This document shows positions 755 to 4,972 of a stretch of DNA of 64,000 bases, piece by piece. Source of the stretch: Terriglobia bacterium (GTDB taxonomy: Bacteria; Acidobacteriota; Terriglobia; 2-12-FULL-54-10); the NCBI GenBank assembly GCA_963666975.2, contig CAXVYR010000004.1:416001-480000 (forward strand), read 5' to 3'. A model generated the notes under the pieces. The model saw nothing but the letters and a program-made list of their open reading frames with translations. It was not told where the DNA came from and made no database searches. Numbering within the stretch: position 1 is the first letter of the stretch; every line of letters starts with the position of its first letter. Made by a program: the position numbers and the translations under genes.

Positions 755-1300
755 CTACAAACCTTTAGCTTTGAGCTTGACCTGGCCCTTCTCTACTTCC
801 ACTACATACTGCACTTGGTCGCACTTGAAATCGCGTTTGAGCTGGGCAGTTTTCTGCTGGACAAACTTCCGGAAATCATCCGGACCGATATTCGCGGCAT
901 TCTCTCCGCATTTGCGCTTTGCCTCAATCAGCGCTTCGAACAGTTTGTCCACCTTCTCCGGCTCCGAGACCGGGTCGCGCCATTCCACACGGCACGCCAA
1001 GTGCTTTTTCTGCTCCGCCCGCAAGCCCGATCCCGTCTGGCGGGGACCCTCCTCGCGGTCCTTGATTCCCTTCCGCCAAAGATCGGAGAAAACGCTAAAG
1101 CGCTGGGCGAGTCCATTGTAACGGAAACGTTGAGCGTAGGTTAGCTTTTGGGCGTCGGCATACTTTTTGATGAGGTTCTCCACGCGCCAGCGGCTGTCGG
1201 TAGGAGGCCGCTGTGATCCGCCGTTAAAATAAATATCAAATTCTATTTTAAGCCGGCGAAGGCTTTCTTCCAGGTGGGAGAGTTCCTCATCAACCGTCAT
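755..1300 (-). CDS. Conserved hypothetical protein, MXAN_5187 C-terminal-domain-like
   Basis: 181 aa ORF with LKIEFDIYFNGG..RPP, RFRYNGL and terminal VEKGQVKLKAK, as recalled for this family. Confidence 0.7.
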   Translation of the reverse strand: MTVDEELSHLEESLRRLKIEFDIYFNGGSQRPPTDSRWRVENLIKKYADAQKLTYAQRFRYNGLAQRFSVFSDLWRKGIKDREEGPRQTGSGLRAEQKKHLACRVEWRDPVSEPEKVDKLFEALIEAKRKCGENAANIGPDDFRKFVQQKTAQLKRDFKCDQVQYVVEVEKGQVKLKAKGL

Positions 1301-1870: not shown

Positions 1871-2270
1871 CGACAGGGAAGCTGGCCATACGGGCTTAGT
1901 CCTCGAAAATCGCCGCCATTCAGCCACCAGAAAAGAGCAATCATCGACCGTCCGGCCACATCGCTTGTTTTTTTAGCTATATTCGGCCTTGGTTTACCGC
2001 AGGTTTAGGAGGCATGCGAATGCCAACGGGTGAGCCAATTTTCCCACCAGCGTTATAACGCACACCATCTCTCGGACAGGAATACGGGGTAGGGATAATT
2101 GTCTGGGGATGAGCGATTGTTTTGAAGGAACGACTTCGTGGCCAGCAAATGGGGGCTATCCGGCAAGAGATGTTAACGGCGGCAGGATTGGGAGAAAATT
2201 CGGGAAAGCGATTGTGGGCGCTCCCACGCAGCCATACCCACATCTGCATCCATTCGCCGACCGCGTTTCG

Positions 2271-3467
2271 TTACGCCTGCTCCCTGCCAGAGGCCTTGGG
2301 ATATCGGTGCCGGATCGGCTCCGGAACACGTTCTCGTTCGGGCGGATGCACTGTCAGATTCCATTCCAGAGGGATATCCTGAGGCAGGTAGCAAATCTTG
2401 TCGTCGCAGGCCTGGTATCGAAACCGACCGCGAATCTTCAACTCCCGGCTTCCTGAGAAAATCGGCCGCAAGACATCGATTCGCCCCATGGTGATATCCT
2501 GCGTCACCCGGAATACTCCGTGATAAACCGGGACGGTTTCCTGGATGGCGGGCAAGTGTATCATTTCCGGCGTTGGATATTCCGCCGCATGCACGACGTA
2601 TTCCGAAGACGGCTCCAGTTCCAGTTGGATCGGGATATAGCCTTGGACAGTGGGAGCATAGACGTGCATCTTCGGCTTCAAATCCAGCCCGGCCACCAAA
2701 GTCAACCGGAGACTCGGATGGACCACATCCTGCGTGGAATAATATTTCAACTCCAGATGGTCCGTCTCCACCCGCGTTTCGCGCGTGCCGGCCTGGGAAC
2801 CAAACTCCCGCAGCAATATGGTCGGGGCGGTAACACGGTCCCGGAAGGAATCCGGGAAATACTTCGTCTGCAGGATCCCCTCTCGGTCCACTACATACGT
2901 TCCCGGATAGGGAATTCCGTAATAGAAATGGTCGCGGGAAACATGAGTGTTTAAGATCCCGAACTCCCGGATGATGCTGGACTGGACGTCTGACAACATA
3001 GGAAAAGTAATGTTTTTCCGTTTGGCAAAATCCGCCAGAATCGCTTCGGAATCGTACAGGATGGAGCAGACGCCGTATCCCTGCTCACGGAATTTTTCGA
3101 CGTATTGTTCCAGCTCCACGAGCTGTGTTTTACAGTATGGTCACCAGTCTACGGACCGGTTGAAGACGATCACCGCTCCCTTGGGACCGAGAATGGAGTT
3201 GAAGTCCTGCACCTTTCCGAATTGATCCGGCGCGCGAAAGAATGGAATCTTTTCCCCGACAGCCGGCCCCGTGGAAGTAGGCAGGTTGTTCTTCCAAGGC
3301 CCTTCGATGCCGCGCTCCCACGGTCCTTCCAGGGCGCCTTCCGGCTGCGCCTGCCCCATCAGCAATGGCGCCAGAAACAGACACATCGCCAGCACAAATC
3401 CGGCCCTGGAGCCTTTAGAAATCCGTGACCCGGATTCCCTGCGGTGTTTCCAGTTGTACCCGTTCAT
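2271..3467 (-). CDS. Selenoprotein: exported peroxiredoxin-like (AhpC/TSA) domain with UxxC motif, fused to a DsbD N-terminal-like domain
   Basis: ORFs 3141..3578 and 2271..3119 are in the same frame, joined by one TGA: AVIVFNRSVDW-TGA-PYCKTQLVEL. ATG 3467 has a GGAG RBS and a hydrophobic N-terminal segment. C-terminal HVYAP..FRYQACDDKICYLP is DsbD-N-like. Confidence 0.85.
3111..3143 (-). promoter_or_regulatory. Sec UGA codon plus bacterial SECIS-like hairpin
   Basis: UGA, 15 nt, then CAGCTC-GTG-GAGCTG (perfect 6-bp stem, loop starts with G, 21 nt after UGA). Confidence 0.7.
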
Positions 3468-3529
3468 TACGGCTCCAGAAACCAAATTTTTCAAAACAAA
3501 CCTCCGGTCACTAGCCGTGTGATTACTGC

Positions 3530-4972
3530 TTAACGACCCGCATCCGCATAGAACCCGCCCACGATGGCATCGTACCAAAGCTGCACTCCCGCCGGGGCCA
3601 CTCCTCTGGGAAGCCCGGCTTCCGGCGCGCTGTAGCCGTGTATGCCGGCATCCAACTGATACACACGAAATTTTGGCGCGGGATTCATTGCGGCATACCG
3701 TGGCAGATAGACATTCCGGTAAATCTCGGGGGCGTGGTCCCGGCTGTTCTTTGTAATAATCAGCAGCAGAGGCGGAACCGGCTTGGCGTCTTTCCCGGAA
3801 ACCTCCCGAAGGTAGCCGACGTATCTCGCGACCAGGGCCTCGGTCTCCTGTGAACTCAGTTTTAACCGTTTGGCGGTGGCCTTTGCCGCCGAGGCCATTG
3901 CAGCGGCGTTGTCAAAATGAAGGATGTTTTCCGCCTTGAACTGCGGACGCTTGGTGCCACGCTCCCAACTTTCGTAAACTTCCTCCATCACCATAGCCAG
4001 GCGCTCTAACGCCTCCACTCCCTCTTCCTGAATCAATTCATATCCGTAGTACCGGGCGGTATCACGCCAGGAGCGAATTCTCAGGCAGTTGAAGTCCACT
4101 CCCCAAGGTTCGCTGATGCCCTGGATTTCTCTTGTCATCTGCCCGTACAGGGACCCGAAGGGGGAGCTTTCCATTCCGACGATGCCCCGAATGTTGGTGA
4201 CCCGCTGGCTCAGCATCATGGTAAAGGGTCCGCCCGTCGAATGGCCGTGGGCGTAAATCGAGAATTGTTCTTCGGGCAGGTGCTGGCGCAGCATTTCCCT
4301 GCCCCCTTCCTCGAAAGCCACCGGCCAGCCTGCCATGCGGTTGTAGAACTCCGTCCCTTCCTTGGCGCAGGCCAAAGTCAGCGTGCCCCACCTTCTGCGC
4401 CGGGAATCTTCCTGGTCCTTTACCACTTCGTACTGATCCGGGGTAATCACGCCGTCGCGCTTCCAGATCGGCGTTCGCACGGTGCCATCCGCGCGGATGG
4501 TGTCGCCGGGCCAATTTCTGGACGGGTCCTGCAGGTTCAGCCGCCCCGGGTAGGACATGTTGACCACCTTGAAACCAAACTTGCTCGTCAGGAAACGGGA
4601 GAATTTATCTTTCGATATGTGGTCTCCCGATCCCCCGTGCAGCACGAGGATTCCCACTTTCTTTCCGTCCGCTCCAATTGGAATTTGGGATGCGTCCACC
4701 GGCTCGTAGACCATCGCCGCAATGTCCCAATCCAATTCGAGAGCCCGGATTCGGATGATGGATTCCTCCGCCCGCAGAGGGATGTCGGGCTTTGCCAAAA
4801 CCTTTTTCGAGGTCTCGACGAGTTCGGGGCGAGTGATACGAATCCATTCCCCTCCGCTCACTTGCTCCACCTTGCGTTTTGAATCCTCTGCGGCAACGGT
4901 CCCATTGCTGCCAGCGCTGAACAGCAAACACAACAACGCAACCGTCACGAAATTGATCTTTCGGCGCATCAT
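3530..4972 (-). CDS. Secreted alpha/beta-hydrolase-fold protein
   Basis: Signal peptide, VLHGGSG, GHSTGG nucleophile elbow, C-terminal GIHGY. Confidence 0.75.
   Translation of the reverse strand: MMRRKINFVTVALLCLLFSAGSNGTVAAEDSKRKVEQVSGGEWIRITRPELVETSKKVLAKPDIPLRAEESIIRIRALELDWDIAAMVYEPVDASQIPIGADGKKVGILVLHGGSGDHISKDKFSRFLTSKFGFKVVNMSYPGRLNLQDPSRNWPGDTIRADGTVRTPIWKRDGVITPDQYEVVKDQEDSRRRRWGTLTLACAKEGTEFYNRMAGWPVAFEEGGREMLRQHLPEEQFSIYAHGHSTGGPFTMMLSQRVTNIRGIVGMESSPFGSLYGQMTREIQGISEPWGVDFNCLRIRSWRDTARYYGYELIQEEGVEALERLAMVMEEVYESWERGTKRPQFKAENILHFDNAAAMASAAKATAKRLKLSSQETEALVARYVGYLREVSGKDAKPVPPLLLIITKNSRDHAPEIYRNVYLPRYAAMNPAPKFRVYQLDAGIHGYSAPEAGLPRGVAPAGVQLWYDAIVGGFYADAGR

Follow-up and report, generated by a model that had tools for sequence, protein, structure and literature searches.

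A 64,000-nucleotide stretch of DNA from a Terriglobia bacterium (contig CAXVYR010000004.1, positions 416,001 to 480,000; hereafter the window, whose own positions are used below) raises the question of whether two open reading frames (ORFs) on its minus strand, separated by a TGA codon, are two genes or a single gene in which TGA encodes selenocysteine (Sec, U), and of what the product of such a gene would do. Our analysis indicates that one gene very probably occupies 3467..2271 (-) and encodes an exported selenoprotein with two domains; the product is most likely a reducing thiol/selenol-disulfide oxidoreductase located in the cell envelope, and it would be fed via CcdA. Drawn from sequence comparison, the evidence for a selenoprotein gene is strong; the biochemical role is one that we infer from the sequence.

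The standard ORF listing gives one ORF at 3141..3578 (-), which terminates in ...NRSVDW followed by TGA, and a second one of 282 amino acids at 2271..3119 (-) in the same frame. Translated with TGA as U, the region 3578..2268 (-) is one open frame with a single TGA in the motif VDW-U-PYCK, and the minus-strand frame 3467..2271 comprises 398 codons plus a stop (2273-2271), with its only in-frame TGA at 3143-3141. The translation thus bears out the original prediction that the two ORFs are one frame, split by a single TGA at the first position of W-U-P-Y-C, and that the product starting from the ATG at 3467 has 398 amino acids. The gene's closest relative, locus L014, is 88% identical over residues 1-391. 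Four public runs, belonging to four studies, have contigs that span 2271-3578, TGA included, and no letter in them differs from the window; the independent support is weak, since the runs possibly include the source sample. In run X10, a single base is absent at 3120 from one 11-kb contig, within the hairpin described below. The frame would be shifted by this gap, which may stem from a slip of the assembly at the palindrome; three other runs carry the window's letters. No RNA run was among the 22 runs listed for the stretch.

We scanned one genome per species and obtained 80 related loci, nearly all from Acidobacteriota (Terriglobia, Bryobacterales, and Vicinamibacterales). Strict-motif scoring of 76 loci found TGA at the Sec column in 62, TGC in 12 and TGT in 2. 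Among the loci missed by the strict motif, L030 and L088 carry TGA but differ in the flanking residues, L057 has its TGA in the Sec column followed by a frameshift within a few codons (it is either a broken copy or an assembly error), and the start of L076 lies downstream of the column. In total, TGA stands at this position in 65 and TGC or TGT in 14 of the 79 loci that cover the column, with no other codon; the expectation that homologues would carry either TGA or Cys here held in every one of them.

The family had also been expected to be split by gene callers, and 88 of the 120 best protein-database clusters indeed begin just after the Sec column (80 plain and 8 tandem), so that public annotation routinely truncates it. 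The remaining clusters among these 120 are 29 full-length CxxC, 2 WxxC, and 1 LxxC forms; Trp is recorded at the Sec/Cys column for P0089 and P0091, and Leu for P0070. The Trp in P0089 and P0091 would fit a gene caller that read TGA by another table. Eight clusters from metagenome contigs (P0001-P0008, 610-617 amino acids) are tandem double versions of the family: their first copy begins just after the Sec column, presumably cut at the TGA, and their second has a degenerate active site (SADW-S-xx-C or SADW-D-xx-S) and retains the C-terminal Cys pair. Another cluster, P0015, from a 4.5-Mb contig, has 183 residues identical to the C-terminal ORF (from window position ~2915 downwards) and then changes frame inside the DsbD_N domain, continuing into the overlapping frame 2173-2394 (-); the frameshift reflects an indel from assembly or else an allele broken in a sister assembly.

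Truncated clusters of this kind would also be found if there were no selenoprotein at all and the TGA were a nonsense mutation, an assembly error, or a true stop between two separate or dead ORFs, and the two ORFs from standard gene calling, the frameshift right after the TGA in L057, and the one in the C domain of the near-identical assembly represented by P0015 could be read in the same way. We consider such an explanation scarcely credible, given that the TGA occupies the exact column in many species, with the frame kept on both sides and Cys as the sole alternative. The 282-amino-acid piece alone would moreover lack an export signal, an active site, and the first strands of the fold, because the signal peptide and half of the fold lie in the upstream part. 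The agreement of the four runs, the compensatory synonymous changes in the hairpin, and the complete Sec machinery of the genome, both described below, argue against it as well.

The palindrome CAGCTC-GTG-GAGCTG begins 15 nt after the TGA, with its loop 21 nt after it, within the codons for Q-L-V-E-L, and had been proposed as the selenocysteine insertion sequence (SECIS) hairpin. Across the family, a helix of 7 bp occupies fixed positions (+17..+33, counted from the U of UGA); the outer seventh pair (3126/3110) is A.G in the window, which leaves 6 bp. All seven pairs are present in 45 of the 62 Sec loci and at least six in 60 of them, compared with all seven in only 1 of the 14 Cys loci. Pairing reaches 95.2% of cells (63 aligned sequences, 60 distinct) versus 84.6% in shuffles, of which 0/500 reach the observed value, and falls to 12.9-42.9% when the partner is slid. 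Both sides change in three of the seven pairs. The pair formed by the third base of the Gln codon and the first base of the Leu codon occurs as G-C in 45 of the 60 sequences and as A-U in the other 15 and is never unpaired; because both changes are synonymous, selection at the protein level cannot explain it. The possibility that the helix is kept merely through conservation of Q-L-V-E-L was rejected on these synonymous covarying positions, and also because the helix is mostly missing in Cys-form genes, though several of them have similar residues at these positions.

The window hairpin also lies within the ranges that the legend of Fig. 2 in PMC13188914 gives for bacterial SECIS elements: an apical loop of 3-9 nt (here 3 nt) with a G within its first two nucleotides (here GU), a stem of 4-16 bp (here 6 bp), a spacing of 16-37 nt (here 21 nt), and a minimum free energy of -7.5 or below (here a local energy of -8.3 kcal/mol). 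These results indicate that the hairpin 3' of the TGA is a SECIS element maintained with covariation among the Sec loci, as predicted.

The genome of the window (4.23 Mb in 4 contigs, 98.9% complete), searched for the sel genes as the prediction called for, contains selA (466 bits), selB (372 bits versus a cut-off of 242), selD (350 bits), and tRNA-SeC(tca). The selD gene, outside the window (locus L010, G000 C4:1360322-1361257), has one in-frame TGA of its own (...KAAG-U-ASKL...), followed 20 nt after the UGA by a 7-bp hairpin (GTCCAAA-GGT-TTTGGAC, loop GGU) whose geometry is nearly equal to that of the hairpin in the gene studied here. Five genomes of each form, of unestablished completeness, were searched for selA, which was detected in four Sec-form and two Cys-form genomes. 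In one of the genomes with a homologue (G010), selA at C1:1130039-1131136 and the homologous selenoprotein gene are ~3 kb apart, provided that C1 is the contig carrying locus L073; this proximity, seen once, may be a coincidence.

In the mechanism that we propose, the SelA/SelB/SelD/tRNA-Sec system of the genome itself would insert selenocysteine at the UGA at 3143-3141, directed by the short SECIS hairpin. The UGA might instead be read through mostly as Cys or Trp by a near-cognate tRNA, for example under selenium limitation. The Trp of P0089 and P0091 and the Leu of P0070 could be taken in that sense, although they may be gene-caller codes or real substitutions. The conservation of the SECIS and the Sec machinery speak against such readthrough and for SelB-dependent insertion as the mode under selection, and other genes of the genome read normally under table 11, with no sign of an alternative code. 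We therefore regard insertion of another residue as very improbable and retain Sec as the residue encoded.

We placed 76 sequences in a quick maximum-likelihood tree, from which L080 (<150 amino acids), L030, L057, L076, and L088 were left out. The window groups with L014 (Shimodaira-Hasegawa-like approximate likelihood ratio test, 100). At L018, L050, L067, and the clade L035/36/38/41, the tree places Cys forms inside the Sec forms, and a separate clade of single-domain Cys proteins comes from Pseudomonadota. On this topology, at least 4-5 changes between Sec and Cys would be needed. L067 retains the full hairpin with TGC, a pattern that would be expected of a recent Sec-to-Cys change.

The encoded protein has two domains. 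Its N-terminus consists of a basic n-region, the hydrophobic stretch AGFVLAMCLFLAPLLMG, and then GQA|Q; it resembles a signal peptide of the Sec export type, without a lipobox or twin-arginine consensus, and all full-length homologues have a hydrophobic N-terminus that ends in A-Q-D/E-like sites. Judging by this shared pattern, the product is probably exported, in agreement with the extracytoplasmic location first proposed. PF00578 (AhpC-TSA) matches residues 70-200 (E value = 2.3e-26, 92.6 bits versus a cut-off of 26), with Pfam Redoxin also above its cut-off, and PF11412 (DsbD_N) matches residues 256-364 (E value = 1.9e-8, 34.8 bits versus a cut-off of 25). The C domain (227-374) matches the fold of the N-terminal domain of ScsB (6c29_A, Z = 13.3, root mean square deviation [rmsd] 2.4, 125 residues aligned) and of DsbD-alpha (1jpe_A, Z = 12.0, rmsd 2.5, 109 of 116 residues aligned); a phmmer search of the C-terminal 170 amino acids against the sequences of the PDB gave 0 matches at an E value of 1 or below. 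With the fold matches of the N domain given further on, these results confirm that a peroxiredoxin (Prx)-like UxxC domain is fused to a DsbD-N-like domain. Among the 10 NCBIfam families listed, none came near its cut-off: the best was NF006960 (38.7 bits versus 140), SelL_rel_redox reached 29.8 bits versus 120 and the ResA model 32.5 versus 170, and no model for ResA, DsbE, or StoA was close.

Both redox motifs are invariant or nearly so. Across 30 aligned sequences, C112, C354, C359, D107, W108, and R380 are invariant, and column 109 (U/C) is nearly so. An AlphaFold2 model built with 30 sequences has a mean predicted local distance difference test (pLDDT) score of 85.1 and a predicted template modeling score of 0.78, with pLDDT below 50 for residues 1-60. 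Short contigs of other community members match only 3108-3150 (the UGA and hairpin) and 2382-2417 (the CxxxxC motif), which are the two redox centers. The mature protein would thus combine a Prx/TlpA-like domain carrying Sec109-Pro-Tyr-Cys112, a DsbD-alpha-like immunoglobulin-fold domain carrying Cys354-x4-Cys359, and a conserved tail. Sec109 would be the attacking nucleophile, and the DsbD-alpha-like domain would serve as a docking and electron-exchange module for thioredoxin-fold partners, either its own or another protein's.

To describe the contact between the two domains, we ran a complex prediction on the separated domains of P0010, a natural Cys homologue with 57% identity. The pair scored 0.90 and the best control 0.00; 116 of 157 solved complexes and 2 of 215 mismatched pairs attained that score mark, counts that hold roughly here since the pair has its own alignment. 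The prediction runs agree in at least 95% of contacts, with a partner pLDDT of at least 92. The pass may reflect likeness, given that both chains come from a single protein and that complexes of DsbD-alpha with thioredoxin folds have been solved. On the thioredoxin side, the predicted interface comprises residues 76-79 and 81-82, which flank the CxxC (105-108 and 110-111 in the window's protein), together with helix residues; the opposite domain contributes 216-229, 293-301, and the tail at 347-353 and 356-359 (376-382 and 385-388 in the window's protein, with the invariant Arg), and tail residues 347-353 are predicted to contact 76-79 and 81-82. The model thus predicts that the two domains form one compact body with the conserved tail on the active-site face, where the tail with R380 would pack against D107/W108 beside Sec109.

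A candidate electron source lies elsewhere in the genome. This has exactly one DsbD_N match, which is the gene studied here, and exactly one DsbD_TM match, a CcdA-like ORF of 240 amino acids (G000 C3:550198-550842) that is directly followed by an ORF for a 187-amino-acid exported thioredoxin-like protein with WCQPC (TlpA/ResA type). Electrons for the selenoprotein would ultimately come from the cytoplasm through this only CcdA-type membrane protein, and the CcdA-like and WCQPC TlpA-like pair is the candidate donor. As described in excerpts of PMC3322552, DsbD of Escherichia coli passes electrons from cytoplasmic thioredoxin to periplasmic oxidoreductases, with its alpha domain touching the substrates, and DsbD-alpha exchanges electrons only with thioredoxin-fold partners; ScsB feeds TlpA and, next in line, PprX (a peroxiredoxin), besides a Prx-like protein whose function is unknown. 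By analogy, the likeliest role of the protein is that of a reducing oxidoreductase in the envelope, whose alpha-like domain would exchange electrons with thioredoxin folds, its own or a partner's, and electrons could flow either from the thioredoxin fold to the alpha-like domain (compare DsbD gamma to alpha) or from the alpha-like domain to the thioredoxin fold (compare DsbD-alpha to CcmG).

Several observations weigh against this account, at the level of the RNA, the genome, and the protein. Folded as a single sequence, the 66 nt that follow the UGA had z = 0.57 and were equalled or bettered by 141 of 200 shuffles, and their minimum free energy structure is a different, longer-range helix that was not used as evidence; a search of Rfam with 2900-3300 gave no match at an E value of 1 or below. 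Because the hairpin alone is not significant and Rfam is empty, the case for a selenoprotein rests on comparison. One of the five Sec-form genomes examined for selA, for which completeness was not established, showed none. The CcdA-like gene sits on another contig than the selenoprotein gene. When 1233 ORFs of the 80 loci were clustered de novo, no neighbor recurred in more than 8 loci (a 47-locus cluster is the antisense frame of the selenoprotein gene itself), and the operon-based inference of function was dropped for this reason; since no neighbor is conserved, donor and substrate cannot be read from the neighborhood, and the gene is an independent unit. In the predicted interface of P0010, the DsbD-N cysteines (325 and 330; 354 and 359 in the window's protein) are unnamed, which makes them uncertain rather than excluded as contacts. 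The internal Sec-to-CxxxxC (CDDKIC) relay of the original prediction found no support here, as the interface names the CxxC flanks and the tail in place of these cysteines: a direct intramolecular contact is not supported in the predicted conformation, and a relay would need domain movement or action in trans. Finally, the hallmark active-site motif of peroxiredoxins is PxxxT/SxxC with the peroxidatic Cys, and its Pro and Thr positions are F102 and V106 here (A106 in most relatives). With these residues out of place, homology does not imply peroxidase chemistry.

The last point bears most directly on a rival in which the Prx-fold domain would be a Sec-based peroxidase, with peroxide oxidizing Sec109, Cys112 resolving it, and the DsbD-alpha-like domain as a built-in reductant, which would make the protein a self-contained periplasmic peroxide-removal module like ScsB-TlpA-PprX in Caulobacter. 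Structure comparison leans toward this rival, since the best fold matches of the N domain (64-225), also by Foldseek, are BCP/AhpE-type peroxiredoxins (Z = 18.9-18.0; BcpB 5epf_A, Z = 18.9, rmsd 2.6, 151 residues aligned; 5id2_A, Z = 18.9), above ResA/TlpA/CcmG (Z = 14.2-11.8; ResA 2f9s_A, Z = 14.2). In the model, Sec109 stands at the start of helix 110-121, where peroxiredoxins have the peroxidatic Cys. Sequence comparison leans the other way: the closest solved proteins by profile are ResA thiol-disulfide oxidoreductases (3c71_A, E value = 1.7e-14, with WCPHC aligned on WCPYC), and the motif is a thioredoxin-like UxxC rather than TxxU. Excerpts of PMC3322552 contribute to both sides, for envelope peroxiredoxins fed by DsbD-family proteins are known, whereas Caulobacter PrxL (CDD "peroxiredoxin-like1"), which also lacks the conserved Prx residues, had no detectable peroxidase activity. 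We think a peroxidase rather unlikely and favor the thiol/selenol-disulfide oxidoreductase.

Selenoproteins of the Prx-like UxxC kind have been catalogued since the first surveys of prokaryotic selenoproteomes (PMC1088965 and PMC1794560) and appear in a table of PMC13188914 as "Prx-like thiol:disulfide oxidoreductase" (PF00578; UxxC or UxxU); they have been predicted in Geobacter, Syntrophus, Desulfotalea, and marine metagenomes (excerpts of PMC1088965, PMC1794560, and PMC13188914). Compared by description with this family (reference WP_010940744.1), our protein shares with it the AhpC/TSA-family thioredoxin fold with its PF00578 match, the thioredoxin-like UxxC (here W-U-P-Y-C) in place of the Prx TxxU motif, the existence of Cys-containing homologues, and a SECIS just after the UGA. 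It differs from the family in its C-terminal DsbD-alpha-like domain, second redox pair, and conserved tail, and in that its relatives are almost all Acidobacteriota. The table entry "Redoxin family protein, PF08534, UxxC" (HEU0032618.1) in PMC13188914 may or may not be this family. A fusion of DsbD-alpha to a Sec redoxin had no description in the literature searched, which takes in few subscription journals, and the family may already be in a supplement under a generic name. The gene is thus a genuine mis-annotated selenoprotein of a known kind, with the DsbD-alpha fusion as the added variation.

Likenesses to DsbD, ScsB, and CcdA reside in the C domain, which has the DsbD-alpha fold and a Cys pair near its C-terminal end in a Y-Q-x-C...C-Y-x-P context (the DsbD likeness), and in the fact that DsbD-alpha partners thioredoxin folds, such a fold being fused here to the alpha-like domain itself. 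Unlike DsbD and ScsB, in which the alpha domain, DsbD_TM, and a C-terminal thioredoxin domain form one chain, the protein is without a membrane (beta) domain, the genome's DsbD_TM being the separate 240-amino-acid ORF; unlike DsbD, its order is reversed, with the thioredoxin fold first and the alpha-like domain second, and one of its redox residues is Sec. The cysteines of E. coli DsbD are C103/C109, a spacing of 5, whereas the spacing here is 4. ResA, TlpA, and CcmG, which provide the best sequence matches among solved structures, resemble our protein as exported or anchored reductases fed by CcdA or DsbD; it differs from them in a fold that scores closer to BCP-type Prx, in its Sec, and in its extra domain.

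The upstream ORF at 3530-4972 (-), of 480 amino acids, has a signal-peptide-like start and a GHSTGG (G-x-S-x-G) motif and matched no Pfam or NCBIfam family at an E value of 0.01 or below. Co-transcription of the selenoprotein gene with this hydrolase-like gene, suggested in the original prediction, is possible, as the gap between them is 62 nt and holds no terminator-like site on the minus strand; the linkage, in contrast, is not conserved, with the adjacency kept in 1 of the 80 loci (L014, whose ORF is 93% identical), so no functional coupling to the upstream gene is indicated. The 480-amino-acid gene, a 181-amino-acid gene, and purH are common only to L014. The 181-amino-acid ORF at 755-1300 (-) has an MXAN_5187 C-terminal domain (NF041621, E value = 1.5e-17) and adjoins purH in L014 too. 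The coordinates of the features are collected in Table 1.

Table 1. Features of the selenoprotein gene (window positions) and of the candidate electron-source ORFs (positions at locus L094).
Feature	Position	Strand	Basis
Whole coding sequence	2271..3467	-	UGA 3143-3141 read as selenocysteine; start ATG 3467-3465
Putative Shine-Dalgarno-like GGAG, 5 nt upstream of ATG 3467-3465	3473..3476	-	Read from sequence
UGA codon, Sec109, first residue of U-P-Y-C (Cys112 codon 3134-3132)	3141..3143	-	TGA/Cys column in relatives
SECIS hairpin, 6-bp stem CAGCUC/GAGCUG, loop GUG	3111..3125	-	Covariation, local energy, published criteria
Putative signal peptide, residues 1 to ~41	3345..3467	-	Sequence and homologue pattern
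Prx/TlpA-type thioredoxin-fold domain, residues 70-200 by Pfam, fold match 64-225	2868..3260	-	Pfam, profile, fold
DsbD-alpha-like (DsbD_N) domain with an immunoglobulin fold; Pfam match to residues 256-364, fold match to 227-374	2376..2702	-	Pfam, fold
Second redox motif C354-DDKI-C359, within invariant Y-Q-A-C...C	2391..2408	-	Alignment of 30
Conserved C-terminal tail, ~residues 377-386 (E-R-V-P-E, invariant R380)	2310..2339	-	Alignment; packing predicted
CcdA-like ORF; TlpA-like ORF	locus L094: 1438-2160; 767-1330	-	DsbD_TM match; WCQPC

The finding is solid but not very surprising, the family being common in Acidobacteriota. Because gene callers cut the family at the Sec codon and no NCBIfam model recognizes it, hundreds of records carry a product without signal peptide or active site. 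The gene adds an exported selenoprotein with two redox centers to Acidobacteriota, a dominant soil phylum for which Table 2 of PMC1794560 counted only 4 selenoproteins in 3 families in 2006. Sec and Cys versions within the same clade, with Cys in at least four places of the quick tree, bear on the benefit of Sec over Cys, and a DsbD-alpha freed from its membrane protein and fused to a Sec thioredoxin fold is a natural experiment on the wiring of envelope relays. A bolder extension, which we judge unlikely, is that the DsbD hub is split in Acidobacteriota, with a bare CcdA feeding a soluble Se-dependent "gamma-alpha" module (this protein) as the general envelope reductant and the R380 tail acting as a gate that opens when a partner docks. 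If this were true, the envelope redox homeostasis of a dominant soil phylum would depend on the supply of selenium.

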